From a virus (lineage: Duplodnaviria > Heunggongvirae > Uroviricota > Caudoviricetes), in IMG/VR virus record IMGVR_UViG_2925908680_000001: 64,000 bases of DNA; one strand, written 5' to 3'. Every line of letters begins with the position of its first letter. Within the stretch, counting starts at the first letter, position 1. A program made the position numbers and the translations under genes. A model generated the notes under the pieces. The model ran no database searches, was not told the DNA's origin, and was given only the letters and a program-made list of their open reading frames with translations. Positions 3,326 to 41,609 of this stretch are shown here, one piece after another.

Positions 3326-3398
3326 ATTAAATTTCTAACACATCTTTTTAGATTAACATCTTTGCTGTAAAGTACCCTCGCCTATTTAGGAGGGTGCT

Positions 3399-8564: not shown

Positions 8565-9116
8565 TTATTGGCTATGGCTAAAAATCAAATGAGACACTTC
8601 ATGTGGTTGTAGCTCGTCAAGATCCGGGGCCACAAAACCTTTTCCGAAAAACTTCACAAGTAATTCACCAGCCGAATCATTGTCACCTATTACACGAAAG
8701 TCATACGGCAGCATCGCAAGTTGACGGCGTAATCCTGCGGAGAAAGTCGAACCTAACAGCGCCCACGAATTGCCGCCCGCGTTGTGTACAGCTGCGCTCT
8801 TAAAAATAGACTCAGTTATCCATATTGGGCCATCTTTTAAAGGAAGATAGGTTCCCCAAAGTAACTGTCTGCCATGTGATCGCGTGAAATACCGGGCCAT
8901 CTTCGGATTGCTATGCTGCTTAGGAGCACCTGGTCTATATGTCTGATACCCAGCCAACATCCCATCAAACCTGTATAGAGGGAATGTAACTACTCCTTCA
9001 CTTTCATCGATCCACTGTCTATATGGGTGTATATCATGGCGGTAGTTACGAGTTAGCAAATGAGCTTCCAGCTTTCCAAATTTTGTCATATTCCGTTCTT
9101 CCTGCATACTGGGCAT
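8565..9116 (-). CDS. Toprim-like domain protein, 183 aa
   Basis: Translation has a conserved Glu (ITESIF) followed by VIGDNDSAGE, a DxD motif in Toprim-like spacing. Confidence 0.5.
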   Translation of the reverse strand: MPSMQEERNMTKFGKLEAHLLTRNYRHDIHPYRQWIDESEGVVTFPLYRFDGMLAGYQTYRPGAPKQHSNPKMARYFTRSHGRQLLWGTYLPLKDGPIWITESIFKSAAVHNAGGNSWALLGSTFSAGLRRQLAMLPYDFRVIGDNDSAGELLVKFFGKGFVAPDLDELQPHEVSHLIFSHSQ

Positions 9117-9391
9117 GTGTTCTCTGTGAAATATGGGAAACTATTATCCAGCTCATCTACCCACTGTTTATGGTCGAAGCAGAAAAATATCTCCCACGGC
9201 ATTCCATATTCTTCCATCCATAGGCGGATCTGCATTTCTATTGGAATCGGCGGTATTGCAGACACCATATCAACAGGATAACAGTTCAGACGACGTTCCA
9301 GTTTTTCTACTCTCTTCTGGAGATGAAATATCCGATCCAGATGCACACGCCGCTCCCGTGCCATTTTAAAATAAAGCTCGCCGGTCATCAT
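9086..9391 (-). CDS. coiled-coil / zinc-ribbon small protein (paralog 1)
   Basis: C-terminal FPYFTENTCPVCR; paralogous to the adjacent gene. Confidence 0.5.
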   Translation of the reverse strand: MMTGELYFKMARERRVHLDRIFHLQKRVEKLERRLNCYPVDMVSAIPPIPIEMQIRLWMEEYGMPWEIFFCFDHKQWVDELDNSFPYFTENTCPVCRKNGI

Positions 9392-9756
9392 TAACTCCTA
9401 CATTCAGGGCAAGAGTTCCCTTCCGCAAAATAGGGGAAACTGCTATCAAGCTCATCACACCATCTGCGATGGTCGTAGCACCAAAACGCCTCCCACGGTG
9501 CACGGAAATACTTCATCCACCAGGACACTCGATCAGGTATATCTGCTGGTGGCAGCTCTTCTGGCAATAATTTGCCTGATAATTCCCTTTCCGCCCGCGC
9601 CAGCATTCCTTTTAGACTCGCATTCTCTTTTTCAAGAATATCTATGCGCGCCTGTAACTCAGCTTTCGTTGGCATGGTCCGCCTCATGCTTTTCAGCCAC
9701 CAGCGGCAATAAAGCCCTGGCCATCTTATGAACCAACAGAGCATCGATAATGCCAA
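9391..9756 (-). CDS. coiled-coil / zinc-ribbon small protein (paralog 2)
   Basis: C-terminal FPYFAEGNSCPECR plus shared WE(A/I)FxCxDH(K/R)xWxDELD motif. Confidence 0.5.
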   Translation of the reverse strand: MALSMLCWFIRWPGLYCRWWLKSMRRTMPTKAELQARIDILEKENASLKGMLARAERELSGKLLPEELPPADIPDRVSWWMKYFRAPWEAFWCYDHRRWCDELDSSFPYFAEGNSCPECRS

Positions 9757-10339
9757 GCGTATGCCCCGGCTTAATGTTTAATGCCGCCTCAAGGTGACAC
9801 CTTTCCAGGTCACTTTTCTCGGCTTGTTTATGATGATCTGGCGTAATAACGTCGCCCAAAACACGGCTAATTCTTTCTCGTAATTGCTGGGTGCCTGCAC
9901 ACTTGATCGCTGTATCGTGGAGACGGTTAACCAGTTCGCGATAAACATGCGGCTTAATGCGGATACGTTCACCGGTGACGCCCTTTCCTGGCGCTGGCAC
10001 CGAACTATCCGGAATATCCGGATAGTTGCCAGCCTCGTAAGCTACCCGCAGCCAGTGCATGAATGTTTCAGTGGACACACAACCACAGTCCACATCGATT
10101 TTTCCGCGTTGCTGTTCCAGCCACTGCTCAAAATTCAATCTACACGTATTACTTTCATGTTGCTCTTTTTGTCTCAAGGCCAGCACCTGTTGGGCCAGTT
10201 CCAGAACGATACCGGGTGACGCTAACCTCTCAAATTCCAATAAATAGTTTGCGTCAGGATGACAAGTAGCCTCGCCTGCAAAAAATACCAATTGCTGTAA
10301 GTATGCTGTCGTTAGAGTAGTCATTTCTTTTTGCGCCAT
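9659..10339 (-). CDS. mosaic protein sharing a C-terminal domain with the 18831-19481 product
   Basis: RLHDTAIKCAGTQQLRERISRVL here versus ALRDVAIECHGTDQLRARLSNTL in the other protein. Confidence 0.55.
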   Translation of the reverse strand: MAQKEMTTLTTAYLQQLVFFAGEATCHPDANYLLEFERLASPGIVLELAQQVLALRQKEQHESNTCRLNFEQWLEQQRGKIDVDCGCVSTETFMHWLRVAYEAGNYPDIPDSSVPAPGKGVTGERIRIKPHVYRELVNRLHDTAIKCAGTQQLRERISRVLGDVITPDHHKQAEKSDLERCHLEAALNIKPGHTLGIIDALLVHKMARALLPLVAEKHEADHANES

Positions 10340-10695
10340 TTCTTTTCACATTCCTTAGTCCATTTTTCAATGTTCATTTTGGCAATATCAGTCATTCCAT
10401 CACCTAAGAAATACTTTTTCCGGTACGTCTTGCACTTAAACCACACTACAACAGCCACCAGCCAGAAAATAAAAGGCCATACGGCAATACCAACTCCAGC
10501 CGCGATAAAGCCCAATATCCATAAATGAAGCTCTCCAACTTCTGTTTCCGGCAATATTCTTAAAGAATTAAACAGCAGGCTGAACGAATGGTCGTATGCA
10601 TTGGCAGTATAAGACATGCAATCCATATAATTAAAGTCATAGCCTGCGGCTGCCGCCCATAATGGGCGGTCAAGAAAATGTTTTAGTGTCATCAT
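10321..10695 (-). CDS. small membrane protein, 124 aa
   Basis: Two hydrophobic helices (LWILGFIAAGVGIAVWPFIFWLVAVVVWF) and a Lys-rich tail. Confidence 0.5.
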   Translation of the reverse strand: MMTLKHFLDRPLWAAAAGYDFNYMDCMSYTANAYDHSFSLLFNSLRILPETEVGELHLWILGFIAAGVGIAVWPFIFWLVAVVVWFKCKTYRKKYFLGDGMTDIAKMNIEKWTKECEKKWRKKK

Positions 10696-10701
10696 ATTAA
10701 T

Positions 10702-10995
10702 TTAAGGTTCAGACCAGTTATCTTCAATAGCAATGCTTAATCTTTGTAGCCATTCTGCTAATTTCAGCATTGCTTCTCTTTCGCTTAAACCACACGGAAA
10801 ATCATCAAGCGATATTGTTGGCTTGAAGTTTCCCAAATTATCCATTTCAACGGTCAGATTTTGCTCCAGAACGGTATTTCTTACGCGGCTATTGTGCCGA
10901 AGCAAATATACTGAACGTGATTTATTGGTTTTGTGGTCGAACGTATATTCGGTAAGTATCATCTGACTTCCGCCATGATTATTACCGCGCCACAT
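10702..10995 (-). CDS. hypothetical protein, 97 aa
   Basis: ORF only. Confidence 0.4.
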   Translation of the reverse strand: MWRGNNHGGSQMILTEYTFDHKTNKSRSVYLLRHNSRVRNTVLEQNLTVEMDNLGNFKPTISLDDFPCGLSEREAMLKLAEWLQRLSIAIEDNWSEP

Positions 10996-11018
10996 AATTA
11001 CTCCGTGTTAATTGAAAT

Positions 11019-11381
11019 TTAGCTATTAATCTTCACTTTTATCGCGAACACCTTTACCGGTTTATCACCGAAGTGTGGATGTGTGATTGTTTTTATTTCA
11101 TATCCGTTATACGGGACGTCTATTCTGCGACTGGAATCGTCGCGCTTCGGATATCCCTTTGTGATAATCAGGCGGTCATATTCCCGGAACATGATTCGCT
11201 TATTCCAGTAGTCATTACACAAGCGATACTCTTCCGTTTTCTCTCCAGACTTCATCTGGTCGAAATATTCACCGTTAACTGCCAGTTGAAGGTTAGCCAC
11301 GGTTAACCTCCTGCGGTGGTTCCGGTAGCGGCATCCAGTGAGTTGCCTGCTCAATACCATTACCCGGTTTAATCGTTGCAT
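11019..11381 (-). CDS. hypothetical protein, 120 aa (possibly ASCH-like)
   Basis: ORF; weak resemblance to ASCH-type small domains. Confidence 0.35.
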   Translation of the reverse strand: MQRLNRVMVLSRQLTGCRYRNHRRRLTVANLQLAVNGEYFDQMKSGEKTEEYRLCNDYWNKRIMFREYDRLIITKGYPKRDDSSRRIDVPYNGYEIKTITHPHFGDKPVKVFAIKVKINS

Positions 11382-12537
11382 CTCCGCGCCGAAAGGTGCT
11401 TCCGGTATAGCGTGCGGAGCATATTAGCGGTTCAACCAGAGAGCTATCGAAATTCACCGAAATAAGCACGTTCTGGCCCTTTTCAGGCATTCGCTCACTA
11501 CAGCTTATCCAACTATCCGAAATTACCGGAGAGTTTACGGCTAACGAGCGACCCAACTCAGCGCGGGCTTGCCAGGCTAACCAGGCAGCGTTTTTTGCGC
11601 CAACACCAGCTATGGGGAGGTTCTCGTCGTTATTCCAGGCATTGAAAGCTGCACGTTCATCAAGCCCAACAGGTACTACTGCCAACTGACTGGCATATTT
11701 GTTAATGGTAACGATAAGCTCTTGCTCAGCCTCATCCAGACAATCACCGATACCTCGCCTGTCACCGTCAAAATCATCGAAATCGGCACGAATCTTGGCA
11801 ACCTTCAGGATTGCGGACAACACCTCACTAAGAATTACCGGATAGTTGGTTGACGTTTCCGCGATTTCCCGAAAATTATTGGTTGATGTTTCCGCGATTT
11901 CCCGAAAGTTTCCGGCATGAAGCATAGCCGCGCGGCAGGCGTTCCAGCCACCACGAAACCCATTAGCCCATGCATCACTTTTCGGTAATTTCTCCATTAA
12001 ATCATCAGCAATTTCCCCAGGTACTACCGGCACTGGCTTGGCGGTATAAAGCGGTGTTATATCTGCCCGAAAATTACATGCTTTATGCAGCCGCACCCAC
12101 CGTTCGACTTCTGCTTTGTCAAAATACATACCAGTGAACGTGTTATATTCACGGTCAATTTGCGTGAATGTTACCTTCCACGCCACCGGCTCTGCTTCCA
12201 GCGATGCCAGCGCAATTCGTGCCAGTTCTTCCGCTTCTTCTGCTGGCAGTACAACGTTGCTACCCGGTCCGTATGTTTCGCGCCACTGCTTGATTGTCAG
12301 CAGTCGCTCTTTGGTTATAGTGGTCATGGGTTTTCCATCCGCCATCTCTTCATCGGTTTCCCATAAAACTCGCGCCTGCCCCTCACAGACTTGAATGACT
12401 CCGCCACGACCGCAGGAGTTGCACTTAACGGCATCGTCATCCCACAAGGCGGTTTCATTTCCGCGAGCTGTTTTGACCGTGTGTGATTTATTCCCGCAGC
12501 GGCATTTGTTGAGCCAGTCAATAGTGAAAGTTTTCAT
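11293..12537 (-). CDS. hypothetical protein, 414 aa, DUF551-like C-terminus
   Basis: C-terminal HWMPLPEPP motif; internal duplicated 11-residue unit (NFREIAETSTN x2) from a 33-bp tandem DNA repeat. Confidence 0.55.
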   Translation of the reverse strand: MKTFTIDWLNKCRCGNKSHTVKTARGNETALWDDDAVKCNSCGRGGVIQVCEGQARVLWETDEEMADGKPMTTITKERLLTIKQWRETYGPGSNVVLPAEEAEELARIALASLEAEPVAWKVTFTQIDREYNTFTGMYFDKAEVERWVRLHKACNFRADITPLYTAKPVPVVPGEIADDLMEKLPKSDAWANGFRGGWNACRAAMLHAGNFREIAETSTNNFREIAETSTNYPVILSEVLSAILKVAKIRADFDDFDGDRRGIGDCLDEAEQELIVTINKYASQLAVVPVGLDERAAFNAWNNDENLPIAGVGAKNAAWLAWQARAELGRSLAVNSPVISDSWISCSERMPEKGQNVLISVNFDSSLVEPLICSARYTGSTFRRGDATIKPGNGIEQATHWMPLPEPPQEVNRG

Positions 12538-12803
12538 GATGCCTCTCCTTTACCCGCTGCTTTCGCCTGCTCTTTAGCAAGTCGCTCCGCTTCTCTGAAA
12601 TCCCAATCCACTCGATGTGCTATATCAATTGCAGAGCGCACGGTTCGCTCAATTAGCGTATCCAGATTGTCAATTGTCATTGCCATATCTGGATTGCGAG
12701 ATAAAATCTCCGCCCTCTGAATCTGCCAGTTGTTGCAGGTTTCAAGTAATGAGTTAGCCATATCACTCTCCTTTGATGCGAATGCCAGCGGTGCGGGAAT
12801 CAT
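12534..12803 (-). CDS. hypothetical protein, 89 aa
   Basis: ORF only. Confidence 0.4.
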   Translation of the reverse strand: MIPAPLAFASKESDMANSLLETCNNWQIQRAEILSRNPDMAMTIDNLDTLIERTVRSAIDIAHRVDWDFREAERLAKEQAKAAGKGEAS

Positions 12804-13515
12804 TCCATCGCTTTACTTCTTCACGAATTACGTCAATGCATTCTTTCGAATCCATTAGGTAATCTTCATCAAAAAGACGTTCCTGTTCGTTTTCTATCGC
12901 AACAATGATTGCTTCAACTAACTTTTGTGCCTGAGAATCACTTTCTAACTCTGCTATGCGCTTCTCTGCGGCTTCCAGCTTCTCGCGCATATCGTCAACG
13001 TACTCGACCAGAGATCCGCCAGCAGGAATTTCGCACTCCTCGACCAGTTGGAAGTAGATATCAGCTGCGGCCCGTGTGTTGCTATGCCTTGCGTCGCCCA
13101 TCTCACCTTCACGAAGAGCATCGCGTTCGGCGGTAAGATTGGCTATTTTGCTGTCTTTGCCTTCCAGCTCAACGCGCAGCCTCCCAACCGTTAGCGCAAT
13201 TTCCTCGTTCTCCTGGTCGCGGCGTTTGATGTATTGCTGTTTTCTTTCCAGCTCATCCAGCAGCGCCAAGACGGTAGCCGGATTGGCTGCGGCGATGAAT
13301 TCAGCATTGGCCTGCTGTTCCATTTGGAAATCTTCATCGAAACCGCTTTCTGGATGCGCTCCTTCAATTCTGCAAATTGGAAGATATCCAACAACCTCAC
13401 GATGAATTAGCGCATCATCACCATCAAATCGGCCATTTCCATATTCGAGCGACCACACACCACACGTTGCTTTCTCTGCCTTTTCACGCAGTGCCTGATA
13501 GTCAATCTTGTTCAC
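12763..13515 (-). CDS. Ead/Ea22-like protein
   Basis: N-terminal IDYQALREKAEKAT motif typical of Ead/Ea22-like prophage proteins; coiled-coil centre. Confidence 0.6.
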   Translation of the reverse strand: MNKIDYQALREKAEKATCGVWSLEYGNGRFDGDDALIHREVVGYLPICRIEGAHPESGFDEDFQMEQQANAEFIAAANPATVLALLDELERKQQYIKRRDQENEEIALTVGRLRVELEGKDSKIANLTAERDALREGEMGDARHSNTRAAADIYFQLVEECEIPAGGSLVEYVDDMREKLEAAEKRIAELESDSQAQKLVEAIIVAIENEQERLFDEDYLMDSKECIDVIREEVKRWNDSRTAGIRIKGE

Positions 13516-14105
13516 TGGTTGCCTCCTTTGCGAAGCTGGGCGGCGAACTCGTTAAGTGATATGTAGCAATCTCCAAATGTTAACGAACCGCTCGACCGCA
13601 TATGCTCCATAGCCATCTCCACGCCCTGCGCCCGTACTTCAGCCAGGAAAGCGTCGGTAGCTGGCGTTTCGCTGTGGTGCAGGGCATCATTAATAATCAT
13701 CGCAGCAACTCCGGCCTGCCCTGCATCCGTGACCGACACATGCTCAAGAGTTACGGCCATTGCGTGTTTCAGCCCAGCGTTCTCTGCCACCAGCGCAGCG
13801 AGATTAGTCTCAAGCTCTGAAATTCGGCACGTGGCATCAATATTTGTGTCCTCCAAGCACTTAATTTCACCAAGCAGCTCCAGTGCAACCTTTGGGTTGA
13901 ACGCGGCAACATGACGAGCGTTGTTCTCTGCATTTTTCTGTCCATCAAAGCCGGTCCATTTGATAACGTCTTCACATCGTTCATCACCGGGCGTGCGCAC
14001 CGCATAAGTACCAGTATCCGTCGAAATAAATGCGACCCATTCGTCTGGTGTTGCCTTTTCTGCCGCCTCACGCAGTACCTGATAGTCAATTGTCATTCTC
14101 GCCAT
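13512..14105 (-). CDS. Ead/Ea22-like protein
   Basis: N-terminal IDYQVLREAAEKATPDEW; C-terminal [15 protein letters not shown] shared with the 17557-18219 product. Confidence 0.6.
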   Translation of the reverse strand: MARMTIDYQVLREAAEKATPDEWVAFISTDTGTYAVRTPGDERCEDVIKWTGFDGQKNAENNARHVAAFNPKVALELLGEIKCLEDTNIDATCRISELETNLAALVAENAGLKHAMAVTLEHVSVTDAGQAGVAAMIINDALHHSETPATDAFLAEVRAQGVEMAMEHMRSSGSLTFGDCYISLNEFAAQLRKGGNQ

Positions 14106-14737
14106 CCTTCACAGTTGTAATCACTACAGCCTTCAAAATCATATGGGCTGTACTGCCAGGTGATTTTTCCGCAATGCGGACAATTCCAGCGCACCTTCCC
14201 GCTTCGTGACTTCTTTCTTCTGTTTTGCTTTTTCAACCAGTCAGGCATGATCAAACCTGCGCCCTGAACCATTGTTCTGCGGTTAAAATTATTGATATTG
14301 AACGTCCGCCGCTTTGCTGCATCGGCAATGGAAAATGGCAACCAAACTATTCCTGGTTCGTTTTTGTTGGCGACGCTAAAGATGGTTGCTTTACTGAAGT
14401 CATCGGTTGGCAATCCACCGTGTTGAAGCCAGTAAACATCGTTGCCATTCCAGCAACCTTTTTTGTAGGCCACATACGCAGTGCAATCTGACTCAATCAG
14501 GCTTTCTGTAGGGATGTACTGGCAATCAACGTGCCACACTGCCATTGCATCCACGCTATCAGCGCAAACAGGCTGATCGATATCTCGACCACAATTCCAG
14601 GCTTTTTGGGCTTCTTCCAGCGTGTAAACATGAGCGCGATCGATATCAGAGCTGTAACCATTGCCGTTATGGCAATGGAATGAGGCGTTATTACCCACAG
14701 TTTCACGCAAGCACATCATGTAAAAGCGGTTATTCAC
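14093..14737 (-). CDS. Cys-rich hypothetical protein, 214 aa
   Basis: C-terminal CPHCG...C...C zinc-ribbon-like arrangement. Confidence 0.5.
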   Translation of the reverse strand: MNNRFYMMCLRETVGNNASFHCHNGNGYSSDIDRAHVYTLEEAQKAWNCGRDIDQPVCADSVDAMAVWHVDCQYIPTESLIESDCTAYVAYKKGCWNGNDVYWLQHGGLPTDDFSKATIFSVANKNEPGIVWLPFSIADAAKRRTFNINNFNRRTMVQGAGLIMPDWLKKQNRRKKSRSGKVRWNCPHCGKITWQYSPYDFEGCSDYNCEGWRE

Positions 14738-15023
14738 TGGTTGCCTCCGCTTCCCACGTTTTCAGACTTTCACCACAGAACGGGCAAAATGAAACTCGAA
14801 TCGGCGATTTAGAAAATTCACCAGACCGCAGCATGATCAGGTCCTGTGAATGAATTAATTCATGGTTATAGATTTTGTATTTCAGCAGACCTTTCCGCGT
14901 CGTGTATTCAGCATCCTGCTCCAGGGATTGTGCCAACGCCGCGCACGGTTCTATTTTTTTGTCATTAATCAAACAAGTGGAGATTCTGCACTTTGCAGCT
15001 CCGTCACCATTACCTTGACTCAT
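14730..15023 (-). CDS. hypothetical small protein with CPFCG motif
   Basis: ORF only. Confidence 0.4.
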   Translation of the reverse strand: MSQGNGDGAAKCRISTCLINDKKIEPCAALAQSLEQDAEYTTRKGLLKYKIYNHELIHSQDLIMLRSGEFSKSPIRVSFCPFCGESLKTWEAEATSE

Positions 15024-15036
15024 TGCATTGTTCCCA

Positions 15037-16032
15037 TCAGTTATTGAACGTGATCACTCCGCGCTCGATGGCGAAGTCGAAAAGCTGGTTGGCGGCTACG
15101 TAAAGGCGTATGCCATGTGCTTTTTCCCATGCCCGGACATCGTTTTCTGCGCTTCTGGCGCATTCATCGCAAAGAGGAACGGCCCAGCGATCGTGTTCGT
15201 TTAACGAGCGGGCGCGGTACATGAACGGGTGGTTAACTTTGCCACCGCATCCGATGCACGGACGAGAAACCACAAACCGGAGATAAGCCGGGCTTTTACC
15301 GAGGACCGCTTTTGGTCGGCGCATATACAGCAGGCCAGAATCCTCATCTACAGACAGGTTGACGATCTGCTCTGCGGTTATGTCCACCAGCTCGCGCGTA
15401 CTGCGCTCCCAGGTGATATCTGATTCTTTCAGCGTACCGGTAGGGATGTCAGTTTTTGGCTGACAAAATGCAATGCGACCAGCTTCATCAGGCAGTTCGT
15501 CTTTAAGATTCCGGCGAATGGCCCAAAAGGTGAGTTCAACCATGCTCAGATCGCGATCTGGCGGAAGTTTTAACTCGCTGGCAGCCCAGTTCATAATCCA
15601 GTTGGCGCGATTCAGTGACAGTTGGTCTTCCAGCTTGCCGTATCCCTTCATCATGTATTCCGCATCATGCTTCCAGCACAGGCGAACGGCAGAACCGTTA
15701 TAGAAGTGAGTGGTTAGCTGGTGGCTACAATCGCGCTTATCATGCGCCTGGCAATCGTGAATGTTGGTGCTAACCCAGTGAACGATAGAATCCTCGCCAC
15801 CTAACGCATTAAATACGCGCTCACTTTGAAAAAAGGGTGTCAGTGACTGGTTGGCAACCAGGGAATAATTCAGGTCCACGACGCCATCAGGGGTGTTTTC
15901 AGCCTGTTCGCGCGGCAATGGGGAGATAAGAAAACGGCGACCGGCGCCGATGTAATTGCTGGTGGGCTTATCTACAGGAAAGACAGCCACACCAGTTTCA
16001 TTTACGACATATGGGGTGATTATTGCACTCAT
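15037..16032 (-). CDS. hypothetical protein, 331 aa, with C-terminal Cys cluster
   Basis: CIGCGG...CDEC zinc-binding-like C-terminus. Confidence 0.55.
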   Translation of the reverse strand: MSAIITPYVVNETGVAVFPVDKPTSNYIGAGRRFLISPLPREQAENTPDGVVDLNYSLVANQSLTPFFQSERVFNALGGEDSIVHWVSTNIHDCQAHDKRDCSHQLTTHFYNGSAVRLCWKHDAEYMMKGYGKLEDQLSLNRANWIMNWAASELKLPPDRDLSMVELTFWAIRRNLKDELPDEAGRIAFCQPKTDIPTGTLKESDITWERSTRELVDITAEQIVNLSVDEDSGLLYMRRPKAVLGKSPAYLRFVVSRPCIGCGGKVNHPFMYRARSLNEHDRWAVPLCDECARSAENDVRAWEKAHGIRLYVAANQLFDFAIERGVITFNN

Positions 16033-16136
16033 AATGCATACCGACTCTGTTTTGTTCCGAGCGGTAAAATAATATGTTAGAAAATTAAAATCAACAATCT
16101 AACACGATTTTGAGCGCGTAAACGATGTAACCCGGC

Positions 16137-16820
16137 TTACGGTTGCCCTCCCTTCACCTGCATTAGCGTCAGGTTTCCGCAAAATACAGCACCAGTATCG
16201 ATATAATGCTGGTTCCAGAATGCTTTTGGGCTTTTAGCCGGGGTGTGTCCGAAGATAAAGCGATCTGCACCTGTAATTTCTTCACCGATGCCATCTATCG
16301 AATCACTAACACGGTCGCGCGACCAGATGACATTGAAAAGCGGCACAGCCTTACCGAACTGATACTCTCTATCCGGATAGTCAGCATGAGCAATGACAAT
16401 AGTCTCCTGCCCGGTGTTCAGCTCAATGATATGAGGCAATTGCCTTACCAGCTCCACCAGCGCCCTGGCTAAAACTTCCTTATCACTATCCAGCATAAAG
16501 AACCACTGGCCGCCATTCATTAGCCAGTTATTCACGTTTCCAGCTGGGCTTAACGCATCGATCATCAACCGCTCATGGTTACCCATGACAGCCCGGAACC
16601 AGGGCATCTGCAATAACTCCAGGCATTCGACATTTTCAGTACCGCGATCGATAAGGTCGCCGACTGATATCAGTAAATCCTGCGCCGGGTCAAAATCCAC
16701 ACGATGGAGTTCATTCATAAGCAGGGTGTAGCAACCGTGCAAATCACCAACAACCCATATGTTTCTGTATCCTGAACCATCAATACGGCTATATAACGCC
16801 TGGTCGTTAACGGTGATCAT
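16137..16820 (-). CDS. Ser/Thr protein phosphatase (lambda PPase / calcineurin-like)
   Basis: GDLHG, GDLIDRG, GNHE metallophosphatase motifs. Confidence 0.85.
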
Positions 16821-17044
16821 TCTGCAACATCCTCCAAATCAGCAACCGCGTCCATCACATCAGAACCTCGAATAACTTCAAAAGCGCGGCAGGCCATTTG
16901 AAATACCTGTTGTTCTTGCGGGTGCGGAGACTCCCAATATTTGAAGCCTGGGCGATGCGTGTACCCCATCATGGAATAAAAATCGCCAGCAAGTTCAATC
17001 GCGGCATCAACAAGTTCGCGATTAGTCATTCGCTTTGCTGCCAT
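16817..17044 (-). CDS. hypothetical small protein
   Basis: ORF only. Confidence 0.4.
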
Positions 17045-17315
17045 TTGCTTTCTCCTGTCGGAACATCACGATCATCAGGTCACCTTTTGTCGCTATCCTG
17101 GCTGTTGTGCCAGGCTCAATGCGGCTAAGTTCAAATGCGTCATAGAACGCCTCTAACGCTTTCTGGCGTATCTCCTGTTTGCGGCGCTTTCCCCACTGCT
17201 TTAGAAAAACAGAGGCCGCCCACTTCCCCGCACTGAACATGATGTAAAACCAACCGAGCAGGGCCAAACCTGTGTTGAGGGCCGTATCGATCGTTATCGT
17301 GGTGTCGATATTCAC
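17022..17315 (-). CDS. hypothetical small membrane protein
   Basis: Hydrophobic N-terminal segment. Confidence 0.4.
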   Translation of the reverse strand: MNIDTTITIDTALNTGLALLGWFYIMFSAGKWAASVFLKQWGKRRKQEIRQKALEAFYDAFELSRIEPGTTARIATKGDLMIVMFRQEKANGSKAND

Positions 17316-17560
17316 TGTGGTGGCTCCTGCTTTTCTGCCTTCAATACCATGCGCGAACCATCATCCAGCTCCCAATTAATTTCACCGCCTTCTTCCATGA
17401 CCAGATGCCAGACGAGTTGAGCGGCCTCGTTGGTTACATCACGACCGCGATCATTGCCAACACGACGTTTTGTTCCATCCCCTAAGTCACGCATTTTTGC
17501 CAACACGATGGTTTTTGATAGCGGTGAAAAACCAAGCTGTAGTCGTGCTGAATTGCTCAC
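17312..17560 (-). CDS. hypothetical small protein
   Basis: ORF only. Confidence 0.4.
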   Translation of the reverse strand: MSNSARLQLGFSPLSKTIVLAKMRDLGDGTKRRVGNDRGRDVTNEAAQLVWHLVMEEGGEINWELDDGSRMVLKAEKQEPPQ

Positions 17561-18219
17561 TGTTTCCCTCCCTTGCGAAGCTCTGCGGCAAAGTCAGTGG
17601 CATGTTCACCGAGTAGCTTCCAGTTATCGCGTATATCAGATGCAAATGACTGTTCAGATTTTGAGTTACATTTCTGTGCAAACATCTCCAATCCCTGCGC
17701 CCGGACTTCAGCCAGGAAAGCGTCGGTGGTTGGAGTCCCTTCAACCTTCAGCCCTATAGGGGCCAGGTAATACTTCAGCCCCGCATTCTCCGCCGCCAGC
17801 GACGCGCAATTACCCTCCAGCTCTGCAATGCGCTGTTTTGCAGCATCAAGTTCAATCGATAATTTTTCCAACTGCTCTTTATGCTTCTTGTATTCCTGAT
17901 ATGCGTGCCAGGACTGACCTTTGCGCACACTATCAGTAATATCAGTAATCTGTTCTGGTGTTAGCGTGGTTAGTGGCTGTGCTGGGAAAATCAGCACTTT
18001 CCCGGAATCCCAATCAAAACCAGCGTGAATTGACTGAACCTCAACTGAGGGTGTTGAACCAATGCTGCCAGGCGAATGAACAACGATCGTTACATCCATA
18101 TCGCGACGATGGCTGTGGTTGTTGGACAAAATACGATTCACCAACTCAGAAAATTTGGAAAATTTCATGCTGATTCCCTTTGCTCTTCCTGGATAATATT
18201 GTTGCAATCTTTCACGCAC
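17557..18219 (-). CDS. mosaic Ead/Ea22-family protein, 220 aa
   Basis: C-terminal [15 protein letters not shown]...[10 protein letters not shown] shared with the 13512-14105 product. Confidence 0.55.
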
Positions 18220-18527
18220 TCGTTGCAGATGAAAACGTTGTCCCCGGCAATTAACTTTTTAACGGTGTGCTGGGATTTGTTGCAGAAGCTGCAATAAAGC
18301 GTTGGACTGGCTGATACGGATTGTGCGCCAGATGTCAGCCGCGCGATGTCGTTCTTGCGACGCAATATCACACGGCTGCACTCGACCAGCATCTCCGGGG
18401 ATATCTTCTCCTCCGTAGCGAGCGTTTCTAATCGTTCGAGTATGTGGAAGGCTTTTTCCTGGGTAATCCTGGGTAATTCAGCGTTACGCTCTGCCAGTTG
18501 TGCGGGCGTTAAACCTTCAGACTTCAT
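18165..18527 (-). CDS. small protein with ClpX-type C4 zinc-binding domain at its C-terminus
   Basis: [39 protein letters not shown] closely parallels the N-terminal zinc-binding domain of E. coli ClpX ([39 protein letters not shown]). Confidence 0.6.
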
Positions 18528-18834
18528 ACACTCTCCTTTCGAAATAAACGTACTGATTAATCATGCCCAGGGGCATTTCGAGTTTTTCCGCGATCTCACG
18601 GCGGGGAACACCACACTGATGAAGCTGCCGTGCCAGTTCTATATCGCTCTGCCGGTATTTGGCTGACGGATGAAAGTCTCCTTTCAGAATCATGCTGATC
18701 CCCAGCTCCCGCGCTTTAGTCCTGACGGCATCACCGGTACGACCGATCAGCTTCCCAATACTCTCTACCGTCATAGTTCCGGCGCACTGGCGGAGTATCA
18801 TGATTTCTGCCCTTCCCCATCCCCGCCAGCTCAC
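18517..18834 (-). CDS. putative helix-turn-helix DNA-binding protein, 105 aa
   Basis: HTH-like segments. Confidence 0.45.
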
Positions 18835-19481
18835 GCCGACATCCTCTGAGACATAAACTCCACAAAACGAACTGCATCTTCAGAAACAACGCCGCATGAC
18901 TTCAGATAATTCATTGCGTCATCAGGTAGCGGATTAGTTGGTTCGGCATTTGCCAGGGATTGAGATAAACGCGTGATTAATTTGACCATTCTCCGCTGCC
19001 GGAGGTTGTATCCTTCAGCTAAAGACAGGTAACTGGAAAGGGTATTGCTTAAGCGGGCGCGAAGCTGATCCGTGCCGTGACATTCAATAGCAACATCACG
19101 TAACGCATCGACCAGTTCACGGTAAAGATGCGCTGCCATTCTGCAATCTGTGTCAGATGGTGCTTCATAAATTACCGTCAACCCCAGTTTTTCAGCCAGA
19201 GCGTGTTCTGCACGTGCTCCTGCGGACACATCCCATCCCTTAAGCAGATAGATCGCATCAGCAGAACGCACCATTGCCAGGCAAATATCCATGTATTCAC
19301 TCTGACAAAGGCCACCAGGTAACACAGCTGGATTCAGAACGATATGCCCTTCAGCCATCAGCTCGCTCGCTTTCGCATTAAACGCCGCACGGTTGTAATC
19401 TGGATAACCAGTCATCGGCCCCGCGATGTAAATTTTCAAAACACGTTTCACCATCAAAATTTCCCCAAAATCGTGACGCAA
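18831..19481 (-). CDS. nucleoside 2-deoxyribosyltransferase-like (DUF4406-like) protein fused to a shared C-terminal domain
   Basis: N-terminal KIYIAGPMTG motif; C-terminus shared with the 9659-10339 product. Confidence 0.55.
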   Translation of the reverse strand: MRHDFGEILMVKRVLKIYIAGPMTGYPDYNRAAFNAKASELMAEGHIVLNPAVLPGGLCQSEYMDICLAMVRSADAIYLLKGWDVSAGARAEHALAEKLGLTVIYEAPSDTDCRMAAHLYRELVDALRDVAIECHGTDQLRARLSNTLSSYLSLAEGYNLRQRRMVKLITRLSQSLANAEPTNPLPDDAMNYLKSCGVVSEDAVRFVEFMSQRMSA

Positions 19482-19726
19482 AACATAAGCACTGCGAAAA
19501 GCTCAATACCAAGCTCAAGTAGCGCCAACGCCCCGAAAAACAACACATAGAACAGGCCAATCTCATTCACAGATGGCTGGTGGATCGCACTTAAAGCTAT
19601 AAGCATCATGTCCTCCAAACAGTTATCAGGAATGATATTAATGTTTTGTGTTAGAAAATCAATTTTGAATATCTAATCATTTTGATCAATCATAGAAAAA
19701 TCGCTGAAAAGTAAGAGGCAGCCATC

Positions 19727-20305
19727 ATGCAGAAACAGAGCTATTGGGAGAAACAGAGACAAAAAGCCATGCAAAAATTGGCTGACCCAGCCTGGCGAGA
19801 GGAACAAAGGGCAAAGCGCCTTCAACAAGCTCAACGCCAGCAGCAGCGAGCGAGAGAAAAAGCCGCATCGCCTGAATATCGGCAAAAGAAAATTGAAAAA
19901 GCAAAGCAATATGAACAGCGGAGAAAAGATAAAGCTGTATCCGCTCCGTCCAAAAAAACACGCACGTCACGCGGCCTGAAAGGCAGATCACTCACAGCCG
20001 ATGAACGCCGGATACAGACCGCTATCGGTGCTCTCCCCTGCATTGCCTGCCATATTCACGGGCAACATAGCCCAGTGGTATCCCTGCACCATATCTTCGG
20101 GAGAACGGCAGAGAACGCACATAGATATGTCCTCCCTTTGTGTAAATGGCACCACCAGTACGCAGCGCCAGCCGAGGTCCGAGAACAATATCCCTGGCTG
20201 GTCCCTGTTCATGCTGACGGAAAAATAGGCGGAAAAGCAGATTTCATGCGGCACAATGCCGATGAAATGACGTTGTATCAGATGGCGATTGAATTGATAA
20301 ATTAG
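19727..20305 (+). CDS. Ref-like HNH endonuclease
   Basis: Basic N-terminus and HNH-like C-terminus (CIACHIHG...HHIFG...CKWHH), as in P1 Ref. Confidence 0.55.
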   Translation: MQKQSYWEKQRQKAMQKLADPAWREEQRAKRLQQAQRQQQRAREKAASPEYRQKKIEKAKQYEQRRKDKAVSAPSKKTRTSRGLKGRSLTADERRIQTAIGALPCIACHIHGQHSPVVSLHHIFGRTAENAHRYVLPLCKWHHQYAAPAEVREQYPWLVPVHADGKIGGKADFMRHNADEMTLYQMAIELIN

Positions 20306-20909
20306 TTTTCTAACATTTTAAGTTGAATTGTAAATTTCTCCGATGTACATTCACTACCGATTGGCACACCGGTCAACTTTTTGAGACAAACTGTTTAGTT
20401 TTTCGTATTATTGCCGCCGCTATACCTATGGCGGTGCAATATAGGTGGCTGAAAAGCCCCCGTTGACTCACGGTGTTCCAGCCTTTATTGCGCCGCCACC
20501 AGACCGTGGAACAGTCGATGGCGGCTCCGAAAGCAAGGAGTCACCACACTATGAACAGCTACTGTCTTTTCCCATCACTCGTTGTCCGCCACTCACGCGA
20601 TAATCTGCATTCTTTACTCGCGCTGGGGGTGTCAAAATGACCGTTCGCTACCTCAACTTTCAAATCCAGAACATCACTGGCGGTTGCTATGACTGGTTTG
20701 TCACTCTCGGAAAAGAAGTGATCACCGGGAAGCTGGATGAAGTGAAAGCTAAAGCAATGGCCTACGCCTGCAAGCAAGCCCGGAAGAAATCCGCCAAAGC
20801 ATAAAATACTGACTGTTGCGCCCTGGCATTATCGTGGGGTATATTTCTACGGCACCTTAGAAAAACGGGTGCCGGGATTGGAACCCCGGATAATGCAAAA
20901 GGCGACACA

Positions 20910-20931
20910 GACGCCGAAAGCGTCTTTTTTT
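20910..20931 (+). terminator. rho-independent terminator
   Basis: gacgc-cgaaa-gcgtc hairpin followed by a run of seven T. Confidence 0.55.
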
Positions 20932-21116
20932 GTGTCATGCCATCGCACAGCCATACGTAGCGTTTAGCTCAGAGATCAATGGTAGTGCTGGCTGGGCTGC
21001 CGAAAGGCAGGCCGGTTCCCTTTTGCGCCGGTAGTTCCAACCCAGTCAGTGCTACCGCCATTGAGATTGGAACCTCACGCGGTAGCTCCTTAAATTAGCA
21101 AAAGGAGGCTGCCAAT

Positions 21117-21332
21117 ATGGCTACTATCCCTACCCCAACTCATTCTGAATTTATCTGGCGTTTCTATTCCTGCCAAAAACACCTGTATATCTGCGTCATG
21201 GCTGCTACCGAAGCAGAAGCTCGTTCATACCTTCCTGAAGAACCCTGCATTTTTGCCGCACGCTTCACTCTTGATGCGATGGAGATCCTAAATTACTGGA
21301 ATCTGCCAATGAACTGCGTGGAGGTGCACTGA
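21117..21332 (+). CDS. Icd-like small protein (immI-like module 1)
   Basis: 71-aa ORF whose TGA stop overlaps the ATG of the downstream antirepressor (TGATG), the arrangement of P1 icd-ant. Confidence 0.5.
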   Translation: MATIPTPTHSEFIWRFYSCQKHLYICVMAATEAEARSYLPEEPCIFAARFTLDAMEILNYWNLPMNCVEVH

Positions 21333-22273
21333 TGAATCTGTCCATCTCTCAAAAAGCGACAATGACCAGTATTGAGATCGCGGAACTGGTAGGTAAGCGT
21401 CATGATAATGTGAAGCGTACCATTGAAGTATTAACTAAAGGTGGTGTCATTCAATTTCCTCAAATTGAGGAAATTGAAAATAAACAATCAGTTGGCCCTC
21501 GTCGATTTTCCAAGGCTTACATATTTGAAGGCGAACAAGGAAAACGAGACAGCATCATTGTCGTCGCGCAGCTCTCTCCGGAATTCACCGCCCGGCTGGT
21601 GGACCGCTGGCGCGAACTGGAGAATGCCCGGGTACAGTTAAAATCAAAAGCCGAAATTCTGGCTGAAATGGCGCAAATGCATCTTGAGCATGAACGCCGG
21701 ATCAACGCCGTAAATGCCCAGGTAGCCGAGGTATCAGCACAAGTATCGATGGTCGCTGAAACACTCGAGCAAATCAAGAAAGGCAATATTCCGGAAGGCT
21801 ACATTGGCTACCGCCAGCTGGCGGCGAAATGTGGCCTGACTGAAGCCAAATGTCGCAACCTGGTTAACGCTTTCCGGATTCCCACCGATACGCATGAGTT
21901 TTTAACTCCAGATGGTTTGCTTGCGCGACGCTCCATTGTGGCCCTGGTCCCCTTCCGGAAAGCCTTTAAGCAGGTGATGTCGGAGGCAGAACCACGCAAT
22001 AAACGCTGGTATCATCCAAAGATGGGGATGTTTCAGGCAATCCACCATCCTGTGCCTGAAAGCCCAAAGGATAATCTGTCACTACATACCGTCAGAGAGA
22101 AGATCAGGACTGGATACGCAACAGTGTGTCGTCGTTCTTCCTGGCCTGAAGGTATATGGGTGTGGCCCGAAGGTGGATCACGAAAGCACTGGCGCACCAT
22201 CCGTGACGGGAAAATCCATGCTATTGATTTAGCTCCAGAGGATGTTATTGCTATGGACTGGATTGTTAGTTAA
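21332..22273 (+). CDS. ant: antirepressor Ant (copy 1)
   Basis: N-terminal phage regulatory (pRha-type) domain; P1 Ant-like context. Confidence 0.75.
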   Translation: MNLSISQKATMTSIEIAELVGKRHDNVKRTIEVLTKGGVIQFPQIEEIENKQSVGPRRFSKAYIFEGEQGKRDSIIVVAQLSPEFTARLVDRWRELENARVQLKSKAEILAEMAQMHLEHERRINAVNAQVAEVSAQVSMVAETLEQIKKGNIPEGYIGYRQLAAKCGLTEAKCRNLVNAFRIPTDTHEFLTPDGLLARRSIVALVPFRKAFKQVMSEAEPRNKRWYHPKMGMFQAIHHPVPESPKDNLSLHTVREKIRTGYATVCRRSSWPEGIWVWPEGGSRKHWRTIRDGKIHAIDLAPEDVIAMDWIVS

Positions 22274-23677: not shown

Positions 23678-23945
23678 GTAAACAAAATGAAGTTTTATGT
23701 TACAAAAACAATCAACTACATCAACATGATTTAGGCCAAATTTCGGTCAAAAAATAAAATCCACAAAAAGTGGTTGACACTATTTTGGAAATCACAAACT
23801 GCACATAATCCATCGCGCTAACGGCTCCCGTTGAAGGTTCTTTTGACGATTAACTTTCAGCCGAAGCGCGGTAGGGAGTCATAACGCCAAAGCAGGCCGC
23901 CATGTGCGGCCTTTTTTTGTATCCGTCATCCGTGGAGGAAGGACA

Positions 23946-30461: not shown

Positions 30462-30520
30462 AAAATGCACCCATTTGTGTTAGATAATTAACATGTATTT
30501 TCTAACACAAATGGTGAGAC

Positions 30521-39503: not shown

Positions 39504-39869
39504 GCTTCACAAAAGCTACATAATTATTTTGCGTTAGAAAAATAATTTGAATTTTCGAACATAAATAATAAAATAAATCATCAAAAATTTGATGTTGATC
39601 TTCCATGTTTTCAGGCTTATATTCACGCCGTCGTAGCAAATTCTGCGACCGGGTTTAGCAGCCTGAATGATTGTGCGGACAACCGCAGATTTCCGATATT
39701 GCGGTATTTTTGTGTCCGTAAACCGCGTTACGCCCGAATTATGGTGGGGCGTGATGGGGAGGCTTCGGCCTGCTGGTTTCACAATCGCCAGTCTGCTAAC
39801 CCCGTCACGTCCTGCCACCCGTTTAGCAGCGGGTAGCAGGTTGTTAAACCTGATTGTGAGGCCGTAACT

Positions 39870-41451: not shown

Positions 41452-41609
41452 AACTCTAATGATTTGTGTTAGAAAACTAAAATTAAATCACATAACAACA
41501 TGCGTGTTAATATATTTTATTTTACTAAACCTATTGACTAAATCACAAAGTAGGTATTGTTAGCCCGTCAAAAGAACCTTCACGCCGCGCCCGAATTTAG
41601 GGCTTAACC

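Follow-up and report, generated by a model that had tools for sequence, protein, structure and literature searches.

Here we analyse a stretch of 64,000 nucleotides of viral DNA (hereafter the window; IMG/VR record IMGVR_UViG_2925908680_000001, Caudoviricetes), and in particular a block of minus-strand genes between positions 9659 and 19481 in which short protein segments recur in different combinations. By its best matches the window is a D6-like member of the P1-family phage-plasmids of Escherichia coli, and alignment identifies the proteins that share these segments as chimeras of pieces of the P22 EaD, EaE and EaA types and of the P1 PmgU type, together with a DUF4406 enzyme domain. Judged by these alignments, six chimeras are built from at least ten short portable modules, which include the EaD/Ea22 N-terminal domain with its coiled coil, the EaE/Oad2 C-terminal module, the EaA N-terminal module, DUF551, the PmgU core, the PmgU C-terminus, a helical hairpin of about 40 residues and the DUF4406 domain. 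We think it probable that the region from 8.5 to 19.6 kb is a long, tightly packed and translationally coupled leftward operon carrying a transplanted accessory set from the 'ea region' of lambdoid and P22-like phages, and that its recombined chimeras are controlled by a repressor and serve dispensable functions in host takeover or anti-immunity.

Homology of the shared segments

A preliminary description of this DNA had proposed that at least five minus-strand genes, named here by their lower coordinate (9659, 12763, 13512, 17557 and 18831), form one shuffled Ead/Ea22-like family sharing an N-terminal IDYQxLRExAEKAT module, a C-terminal module (the TDAF module) and a third module. All five open reading frames (ORFs) are present where it placed them. 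The starts of two genes did not hold, however, and were moved to give 18831-19454 (207 amino acids (aa), MVKRV...) and 17557-18168 (203 aa, MKFSKF...), because ATGA-type overlaps and database proteins of 99-100% identity begin there; the same overlap and database logic corrected the neighbouring genes 9391-9675, 12534-12761 and 11019-11297.

All-against-all BLASTP of 22 minus-strand products returned exactly the three links described, plus the pair 9086 and 9391. The N-terminal module joins 12763 to 13512 (36% over 94 aa, E = 1.7e-6; z = 11-12), the TDAF module joins 13512 to 17557 (41% over 125 aa, E = 4e-17; z = 24-27) and the third module joins 18831 to 9659 (50% over 40 aa, E = 1e-9; z = 15). 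The z values compare Smith-Waterman scores with those of 500 whole-sequence shuffles and 500 shuffles inside 15-residue blocks; for the N-terminal piece of 12763 and 13512, for example, the score was 94 against 33 +/- 5 in the shuffles. The shared segments could in principle be artefacts of composition, the refutation that the preliminary description itself had named, or of coiled coils, given that the alignments lie partly in coiled-coil-like sequence rich in Ala, Glu and Leu and that this sequence weakly matches unrelated coiled-coil Pfam families. Nevertheless, the scores exceed those of composition-preserving shuffles by z = 11-27, Pfam and PHROG models match the same pieces, the underlying DNA islands are 85-89% identical and a profile of the third module retrieves 260 cluster representatives at E <= 1e-10. 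We consider the artefact refuted, its probability being negligible, and the segments homologous.

The shuffling across the five genes is real, but within the window it falls into two unlinked groups, 12763-13512-17557 and 9659-18831, which are connected only through fusions in other genomes. The family label likewise stood for some of the genes and not for others: the products of 12763 and 13512 pass the Ead/Ea22 model PF13935, while those of 17557, 9659 and 18831 do not, and for the last two no PF13935 match was found, their tie to the family running only through rare fusions elsewhere (P0228 and P0083). The network also has a sixth member beyond the five genes, 11293-12537, which is tied to 9659 only by shared PHROG families and by relatives of 9659.

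The Ead/Ea22-like genes

Gene 12763 (12763-13515, minus strand) encodes a 250-aa protein that is EaD/Ea22 over most of its length, being 44% identical to P22 EaD aa 37-147 and scoring 104.3 bits against PF13935 (region 12943-13509; gathering score 27 bits), and that carries a C-terminal domain of its own. The 197-aa product of 13512 (13512-14105, minus strand) scores 86.8 bits, and both products cover profile positions 2-139. It further matches phrog_368 over its full length, and because P22 EaD matches this family in the N-terminal half and P22 EaE in the C-terminal half, the product of 13512 is an EaD-EaE fusion, consisting of an Ead N-module (13860-14093), a coiled-coil-like segment (13752-13856) and an EaE/Oad2-type C-module (13515-13676). 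Gene 17557 (17557-18168, minus strand) encodes a chimera of 203 aa in which an unrelated N-domain (phrog_6026; 17872-18168) is followed by a coiled-coil-like segment (17767-17871) and an EaE/Oad2-type C-module ending in RKGGKQ (17560-17742). This protein is a 28-aa deletion variant of the 231-aa proteins that NCBI names 'ead/Ea22-like' (P0247, 82% identical). P0247 scores 37.7 bits against PF13935 at profile positions 75-138 only, 28 aa of that stretch are absent from the 17557 product, and the latter gives no match to the model even at E <= 1. That PF13935 end positions reach the TDAF island at all is due to the model having been built partly on fusions. In D6, orf92 occupies the same slot as 17557 and places an Ead N-domain on a 36%-identical C-module.

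The domain borders agree with a three-part build of N-domain, central coiled coil and variable C-terminus, the coiled coil being suggested by weak matches to coiled-coil Pfam families. The Stx-phage Ea22 proteins have been described as three-part and mosaic, with several variants per genome (V1-V3), one of them bearing DUF551 (Goddard et al. 2024, PMC10834534). The Ea22 protein forms tetramers, its C-terminal domain varies, and it is pro-lysogenic, its deletion speeding induction and raising the burst (PMC7093339, PMC10834534).

These published deletion and tetramer phenotypes (PMC7093339, PMC10834534) raise the question of whether the Ead/Ea22-type proteins of the window bias the choice between lysis and lysogeny, a role reported for the Ea22 of lambda and of Stx phages, and would thus be coiled-coil tetramers whose variable C-termini contact host factors, and not anti-defence proteins. 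It fits such a role that 12763 and 13512 encode bona fide PF13935 members and that the block is apparently repressor-controlled and early, like the pL operons of lambdoid phages. On the other hand, the C-terminal domains in the window are unrelated to that of lambda Ea22, those of 13512 and 17557 being of the EaE/Oad2 type, and the carrier is a plasmid prophage without an integration step of the kind Ea22 was compared with. We see regulation as possible, if on the whole unlikely, and as compatible with an anti-immunity role, the two not being mutually exclusive.

The EaE/Oad2-type modules

The C-terminal half of the 13512 product matches, in tblastn against phages, proteins annotated Eae or EaE, gp37 of HK97 and a gene of HK75. 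By alignment the TDAF module is the C-terminal part of the P22 EaE/HK446 Oad2 family: P22 EaE, HK75_28, HK446 gp27 and the two window proteins have in common a LAAENAG(L/M)K motif, the TDAF island of 15 residues and the QLRKGGNQ end. Residues 95-197 of the 13512 product are 36.8% identical to HK446 gp27 (Oad2 aa 57-175; E = 4.6e-12) and residues 81-203 of the 17557 product are 28% identical to it (E = 2.8e-10), the latter alignment beginning at Oad2 aa 24. Both also match phrog_614 (E = 5.9e-23 for 13512 and 2e-13 for 17557), and Oad2 and EaE match the same PHROGs (phrog_614, phrog_492 and phrog_368), while no Pfam family covers EaE/Oad2. The EaE-type N-terminal module (MKQM.LIEMDGFLKGK...) was not found in 13512 or 17557, in which it is replaced by the EaD N-domain and the phrog_6026 domain, respectively.

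Of Oad2, a July 2026 preprint reports that it rescues OLD toxicity, abolishes OLD defence, binds P2 OLD directly and keeps the OLD tetramer from being activated; the protein is described there as akin to P22 EaE, with occasional fusions to an HNH nuclease or to EaD/Ea22, and a homologue in HK75, 54% identical to it, as inactive against OLD (bioRxiv 10.64898/2026.07.10.737580). HK75_28 and HK446 gp27 are 53.9% identical in our alignment, which fits the 54% of that homologue, so that we take HK446 gp27 to be the Oad2 of the preprint. The idea of a counter-defence region, put forward in the preliminary description, thus appears to have support in the literature for one module only, that of the TDAF/Oad2 type.

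In the proteins of HK446 and HK75 the differences lie chiefly in the stretches that separate or follow the conserved islands, and the modules of 13512 and 17557 show the same pattern in their DNA, with 93% nucleotide identity at the TDAF island and 40-47% beyond it. From this agreement between the two pairs, conserved in the islands and diverged in the flanks, we infer that the islands form a framework and that the inter-island segments may set specificity.

A separate observation concerns the other end of the family. Copies of the EaE/Oad2-type N-terminal 40 residues, 67-72% identical, lie beside or are fused to YfdR-type 5'-deoxynucleotidase genes in SfV, 2H10 and Stx phages, so that here too an ea-module is joined to an enzyme of nucleotide metabolism.

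The DUF4406 fusion protein

The N-terminus of the 18831 product had been described as DUF4406/nucleoside deoxyribosyltransferase (NDT)-like, and this assignment was borne out both by profile and by fold, with the Glu that is invariant in the family retained. The protein (18831-19454, minus strand, 207 aa) comprises an NDT-like domain (19167-19436), the hairpin (19023-19142) and a helical tail (18834-19022), and matches PF14359 with 116.3 bits (E = 8.4e-34; gathering score 22 bits) over profile positions 2-91 of 91, corresponding to aa 16-105 of the 216-aa ORF; P0001 is 99% identical to it at 207 aa. Profile or domain searches of PDB sequences gave only marginal NDT matches (E = 0.5-0.9), so that a fold search was needed to reach NDT. 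AlphaFold2 (AF2), run with an alignment of 55 sequences, predicted an alpha/beta N-domain mostly with high confidence, the block means of the predicted local distance difference test (pLDDT) being 82-98 except for one of 75. With this model, Foldseek retrieved the NDTs of T. brucei and L. mexicana first in the PDB (E = 8e-4 to 6e-3) and then MilB, DNPH1 and BcmB, the top matches having a probability of 1.00 and a target-normalised TM of about 0.5. Among the BFVD viral models there were 34 matches at E <= 1e-3, most of the named ones annotated as deoxyribosyltransferase and several fused to dATP/dGTP diphosphohydrolase domains, a fusion that phrog_12019 represents as well. Fusions with pyrophosphohydrolases of deoxynucleoside triphosphates would fit a two-step destruction of a nucleotide.

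Residues invariant in the 55 family members include G12, P13, M14, G16, N21, F25, S77, G79, A80 and E83, and at least 90% of the members have Y9, a candidate for the active-site Tyr of YxAGP. The KIYIAGP motif aligns to an identical motif in T. brucei NDT, the hidden Markov model alignment ending at aa 68, short of E83. We take the S-x-G-x-x-x-E spacing to resemble that of the phosphate-binding Ser and the Glu nucleophile of DNPH1. The domain's most likely activity is N-glycosidic cleavage of a (deoxy)nucleoside monophosphate. To our knowledge no activity has been assigned to any DUF4406 protein, and a literature search at the level of the terms DUF4406 and PF14359 returned no functional information. 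A standalone DUF4406 gene in one Serratia P22-like phage lies in a moron slot between Q and the holin gene, and no conserved partner gene was seen in that context.

The DUF4406 gene of the window is in its turn a mosaic of alleles. Its product agrees with a D6/N15-type allele (P0015) at every one of residues 1-71, and beyond them the identity falls to about 65%. The switch of allele after residue 71 indicates a recombination breakpoint inside the enzyme domain.

PmgU-like and EaA-like proteins and the helical hairpin

Gene 9659 (9659-10339, minus strand) encodes a PmgU-like mosaic of 226 aa composed of a divergent N-module (10181-10324), a conserved core (10001-10138), a hairpin cassette (9818-9979) and the PmgU C-terminus (9662-9817). 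Its residues 86-214 are 84.6% identical to P1 PmgU and it is 98% identical to D6 orf104 from aa 103 onward only, the N-terminal 85-102 aa being, by these alignments, of other origin than the PmgU/orf104 part. Residues 63-114 recur, at roughly 60% identity, in proteins of Stx phages that bear the annotation EaA or DUF551-containing. The sixth member, 11293 (11293-12537, minus strand), is an EaA-like protein of 414 aa with a Zn-ribbon-like N-terminus (12343-12537), an MTTITKERL N-module (12187-12327) and DUF551 (11311-11514, 78 bits). It is 26% identical to P22 EaA over 365 aa, and it matches phrog_60 and phrog_924, as does 9659; its N-terminal MTxITxERL...ELAxxALA module is present in relatives of 9659 and divergent in 9659 itself. 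No match to PF04447 (dATP/dGTP pyrophosphohydrolase), for which P22 EaA has 167 bits, was found in the 11293 product. Within the 11293 gene, positions 11846-11910 hold a 33-nucleotide (nt) tandem duplication whose copies are 94% identical and encode NFREIAETSTN twice, and similar 'GNFRE...SSTNNFR' stretches occur in related proteins.

The name pmgU ('putative morphogenetic') might suggest roles in building the virion, and the high identity of the 9659 C-terminus to P1 PmgU, together with the hdm/sht labels of nearby P7 genes, annotated as head-morphogenesis or sheath genes, could be taken in the same sense. However, the pmg names are putative, Pfam gave no structural-protein family among the matches (a weak, sub-threshold match to Phage_scaffold lies on the coiled-coil segment) and lambdoid and P22-like phages, whose virions are wholly different, carry the same modules in their early-left operons. 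A morphogenetic role is very improbable in our judgement. A literature search on pmgU yielded no information on the function of the phage gene.

The third module, shared by 9659 and 18831, is about 40 residues long, is covered by no Pfam model and was modelled by AF2, with low confidence, as a helix-turn-helix hairpin in both proteins. When 50 PmgU-like proteins are aligned, the hairpin behaves as a clean cassette of about 54 residues that is either present or absent. At E <= 1e-3 a profile built from three sequences retrieved 1,284 cluster representatives (clustering at 50% identity), and at the stricter E <= 1e-10 it retrieved 260. Among 145 inspected representatives the motif was present in 131, lying no more than 70 residues from the C-terminus in 79 of the 131, often with linkers N-terminal to it (...ACRAAML...PVSxxYKLPPH, TAPPAP). 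The 145 keep 14 positions (H, RELVN, L, D, A, G, Q, RE, L) almost without change, and many of these positions are polar. Most representatives have no Pfam domain; the partners found were DUF551 (9), Ead_Ea22 (3), DUF3850 (3), ASCH (2), DUF5490 (2) and, in single cases, dATP-dGTP_PPHyd, an Rv2179c-like exonuclease and DUF1382. We tentatively favour a role in oligomerisation or docking. A classical DNA-binding helix-turn-helix was considered and rejected, the conserved positions being, by eye, off the usual pattern.

Origin of the mosaic

The modules of the window recur in other combinations elsewhere: DUF4406 is found with the TDAF tail (P0075), with Ead_Ea22 (P0083) and with DUF4752 (P0084), and the PmgU C-terminus with Ead_Ea22 (P0228) and with a HAD_PNKP phosphatase (P0127). 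Many diverse N-termini meet the PmgU C-terminus at the same GNYPDIPDSS linker. In addition, the RKGGNQ* and RKGGKQ* tails of the C-modules are encoded by CGCAA(A/G)GGAGG(C/G)AA(C/A)CAGTGA, which at the same time supplies the next gene with its Shine-Dalgarno sequence and overlapping GTG start. The 19-nt junction GGAGGCAACCAGTGAACAA (coding strand: Shine-Dalgarno, GTG start and overlapping stop) lies at 13508-13526 and repeats at 14730-14748 (95%) and 17553-17571 (84%). Two further islands of high identity lie inside the shared modules: a 54-nt TDAF island at 13614-13667, 89% identical to 17683-17736, which encodes TP(A/T), twelve further residues and (V/L)EM, and a 41-nt N-terminal island at 13466-13506, 85% identical to 14050-14090, which encodes IDYQxLRExAEKAT. 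In the N-terminal island, identical residues have the same codon in 8 of 12 cases, compared with 8 of 37 outside it (Fisher p = 0.006).

This pattern agrees with exchange at short conserved sequences. New combinations would arise when temperate phages that share a host recombine by homology or microhomology, with crossovers likely at the short islands of high nucleotide identity and at the conserved junctions of Shine-Dalgarno sequence, start and stop.

Mosaics produced in this way might also be nothing other than debris of recombination, in-frame remnants that deletions and illegitimate joins leave behind in a dispensable region and that are tolerated without a selected function. Many of the alternative fusions are indeed tiny clusters (one member each for P0083 and P0127, five for P0228), PmgU-like proteins are in places fused with the downstream gene (P0135, P0193), 17557 is a deletion variant and breakpoints fall inside domains as well. 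Against this, all the ORFs are intact and translationally coupled, the hairpin keeps its nearly invariant positions over diverse representatives and the catalytic-type motif of DUF4406 is invariant. All network proteins of the window moreover have database relatives of 96-100% identity, and their exact architectures recur widely (cluster P0002 has 667 member sequences and P0121 has 758, and P0243 is on 95 contigs), which we count as a sign of selection. Debris is accordingly an improbable account of the chimeras.

Genomic context and gene organisation

The phage record most similar to 9659-19481 is Escherichia phage D6 (45% aligned at 90.8% identity), followed by SJ46, P1-like records, RCS47 and P7. 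The order of the backbone is common to the D6 annotation, running from isaA, pdcA, doc/phd, humD, hot and the pmgU-like gene to the pdcB-like DUF968 gene and ppp and then to DUF4406 and a small ORF, beyond which ref, icd and ant are divergent in both. Nothing covering at least 80% of the block was found among 50,697 phage records, 72,556 plasmids and 5,426 complete E. coli genomes, yet pieces of it occur in 3,760 of these 5,426 genomes, mostly in chromosomal prophages, so that the block is a unique assortment of widespread parts, in agreement with its earlier description as a fast-evolving accessory region. At 11.0-14.7 kb the block is about 95% identical to Stx and P22-like phages, and the pL operon of phage 611R6 has, between recT and xis, a 214-aa gene followed by Ea22 and DUF551.

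Nearly all genes of the block overlap their neighbour through ATGA or GTGA. The first gene of the leftward operon is a small hydrophobic ORF of 51 aa (19454-19609, minus strand), 98-100% identical in D6 and two plasmids, whose stop overlaps the start of the DUF4406 gene (TGATG). A presence matrix over D6, the two plasmids, P7 and a P22-like phage splits the genes into a conserved backbone (the small ORF, DUF4406, 18517, DUF4752, 16817, ppp, DUF968 and 14730) and variable slots (the Ead/EaE genes, the 11293 slot and 10321-11019), and one genomic slot bears different N-domains on the same C-module in related elements.

The two sizeable intergenic gaps of the block, the only ones it has, share one motif. 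This operator-like 15-mer occurs as TGTTAGAAAATCAAT at 19649-19663 (plus strand), upstream of the operon and in the same place in D6, and again at 16075-16089 (plus strand), in the gap between the ppp-like and DUF968 genes. Allowing up to two mismatches, the 15-mer TGTTAGAAAATNAAT has 10 sites in the window against 0.8 expected: 1916-1930, 3326-3340, 16075-16089, 19649-19663, 20301-20315, 23698-23712, 30478-30492 and 30493-30507, 39532-39546 and 41467-41481. One pair of sites is inverted. Comparison with the ORF list puts the sites at 1916, 3326, 16075, 19649, 20301, 23698 and 30478/30493 in gaps between ORFs or at the ends of genes. In the D6 locus three equivalent positions keep the motif. 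The site at 19649-19663 overlaps a weak, putative sigma-70-like promoter on the minus strand (-35 at 19657-19662, -10 at 19635-19640), and the site at 16075-16089 overlaps another weak one on the coding strand. The consensus of the P1 C1 operator, ATTGCTCTAATAAATTT, had no match in the window at up to three mismatches; the element is heteroimmune and has this other 15-mer enriched in its stead. Taken with the C1 operator Op(hea) that P7 annotates ahead of its homologous genes, the 15-mer is a candidate operator of the element's C1-type repressor, which would hold the operon off until it is expressed early.

Several features of the neighbourhood deserve mention in their own right. Rfam found no RNA family within 9659-19481; just past ref it identified isrK (20852-20930, plus strand, 62.5 bits) and the C4 antisense RNA of the P1 family (20975-21062, plus strand, 76.7 bits), and these two RNAs stand upstream of an ant-like gene (21332-22273) in the immI-type arrangement of P1-family phages. 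The adjacent genes 9086-9391 and 9391-9675 (minus strand) are paralogues of phrog_3797 (52% over 54 aa, E = 3e-20) with the C-terminal motif W..F.C.DH..W.DELD.SFPYF.E...CP.CR in common, and in some genomes a gene of the 9391-9675 type is fused in frame to a PmgU-like protein (P0135, P0193). The last gene of the operon, 8565-9116 (minus strand), is labelled 'toprim domain-containing protein' in plasmid pKOr024_2, and Pfam gave nothing for it at E <= 0.01. Gene 18165-18527 (minus strand) encodes 120 aa, and over the C-terminal 43 of these it matches the zinc-binding domain that ClpX has at its N-terminus (NCBIfam NF003745, E = 1.5e-12); relatives on plasmids are annotated 'ClpX C4-type zinc finger protein', and the product could be a decoy or an adaptor for ClpXP. 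Finally, the 214-aa product of 14093-14737 (minus strand; phrog_2457, P7 Upf87.6) has a C-terminal CxxC...C motif and an unusually wide spread for the block, its relatives reaching from P7, SJ46 and P22-like coliphages (95-99% identity) to 129 Vibrio phage records (37-45% identity). Its gene lies immediately upstream of the Ead genes, and that it might be an EaE homologue was ruled out, its matches being to P7 Upf87.6 and Vibrio-phage proteins with none in P22.

Functional interpretation

Placing these results into the explanation that we favour, the products of the operon would be dispensable host-takeover or anti-immunity proteins. The two EaE/Oad2-type modules would bind and block nucleases of the OLD family (ABC-ATPase/TOPRIM), with the inter-island segments setting the target, the DUF4406 domain would be an N-glycosidase acting on (deoxy)nucleotides, and the hairpin and coiled coils would serve as elements of oligomerisation or docking.

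Several observations weigh against this explanation. The homology to Oad2 is distant (28-37%) and limited to its C-terminal two-thirds, the Oad2 N-terminus being replaced here, and with a 54%-identical homologue inactive, activity against OLD is not transferable by homology. PADLOC found no defence-system match apart from a weak match to LmuB on a coiled-coil segment (E = 0.0074), and NCBIfam gave nothing useful beyond the ClpX zinc-finger match at 18165-18527. D56, which aligns to the catalytic Asp of NDT, is present in the 18831 product and is not invariant in the family. The structural models are in part unreliable: the C-terminal half of the DUF4406 fusion is helical with a pLDDT of 45-63, and the model of 9659 has a mean pLDDT of 48.6, too low for a fold search. 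In the case of the proposed recombination, the excess of same-codon use for identical residues in the TDAF island (12 of 15, against 19 of 35 outside) is not significant (p = 0.08), selection at the level of the peptide could be the source of the islands instead, and at least one breakpoint falls within the DUF4406 domain, so that exchange extends beyond linkers. The sigma-70-like promoters at 19649 and 16075 are weak by eye (8/12) and below the scan threshold.

A more ambitious version would see in the hairpin, the EaE/Oad2 C-module and DUF551 interchangeable tails that dock nucleotide enzymes (DUF4406, dATP/dGTP pyrophosphohydrolase, ASCH/DUF3850, exonuclease and HAD phosphatase) or scaffolds to immune sensors or to each other, making the block a combinatorial anti-immunity island. 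The inter-island segments would then choose which ABC-ATPase/TOPRIM variant, of the OLD, Gabija or PARIS type, is neutralised, and DUF4406 would deplete or destroy a deoxynucleoside monophosphate or a signalling nucleotide needed by immunity. We offer this version as tentative and quite unlikely.

In temperate enterobacterial phages, the ea/exo-xis regions count among the most poorly understood stretches of otherwise classic genomes, and they are now emerging as anti-immunity hotspots. Genes 13512 and 17557 are natural chimeras that place an Oad2-type module on different scaffolds, and hence are ready reagents for mapping target specificity, the abundant DUF4406 fusion offers a defined protein with which a first activity of this domain could be measured, and the widespread 40-residue hairpin merits definition as a family.

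Comparison with known systems

The block is an example of a known phenomenon and no new kind of system. Mosaic Ea22 proteins, the D6 and P7 labels for Ead-like and DUF4406 genes, and EaD-EaE/Oad2 fusions were already known; what our analysis adds is the module map, the assignment of the TDAF module to the Oad2 family, the abundant unannotated hairpin cassette, the tails encoded by Shine-Dalgarno sequences and the candidate operator.

The closest counterparts are D6 orf89, orf92, orf100 and orf104 and the 'hea' operon of P7 (upf86.8-upf89.5), which lie in the same position between the pmgU-type end and ref, share the backbone of small ORF, DUF4406, DUF4752, ppp and DUF968, and have a repressor operator upstream. 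Only 45% of the block aligns in DNA with D6, however, the Ead/EaE slots and the region 10.3-12.8 kb holding other genes or N-domains there. With lambda Ea22 and P22 EaD the block shares the full-model match of 12763 and 13512, the presence of multiple paralogues and, to judge from the domain borders, the order of N-module, coiled-coil-like middle and variable C-terminus; it differs in that the carrier is a P1/D6-type plasmid prophage, the Ea22 variants being carried by integrated lambdoids, and in that the C-terminal domain of lambda Ea22 is unlike those of the window proteins. Of the family region, the 17557 product retains just the C-terminal half, and it does not pass the model.

P22 EaE and HK446 Oad2 resemble the C-modules in the coiled-coil motif, the TDAF island, the QLRKGGNQ end and the matches to phrog_614, phrog_492 and phrog_368, whereas the N-terminal 55 or so residues of Oad2 are absent here, the inter-island segments are unrelated and identity is 28-37%; fusions of the 13512 kind, EaD joined to EaE, are noted in the OLD preprint (bioRxiv 10.64898/2026.07.10.737580). 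P22 EaA combines its N-module with a pyrophosphohydrolase and DUF551, of which 11293 has the N-module and DUF551 without the pyrophosphohydrolase. The C-terminal 129 aa of 9659 are common to P1 PmgU, and its core is common to the EaA/DUF551 proteins of Stx phages, while the PmgU-type proteins of P1 and D6 have a different N-terminus from 9659, which also bears the optional hairpin. Lastly, the NDTs, DNPH1 (Rcl) and the N-glycosidases MilB and BcmB share with the DUF4406 domain a flavodoxin-like fold, the (K)IYIAGP motif and, by motif spacing, an invariant Glu in S/D-x-G-x-x-x-E. Compared with the NDTs, in which an Asp precedes the Glu where DUF4406 has a Ser, the domain is minimal (about 95 aa), lacks the C-terminal elements of these enzymes and is fused to a non-catalytic helical tail.

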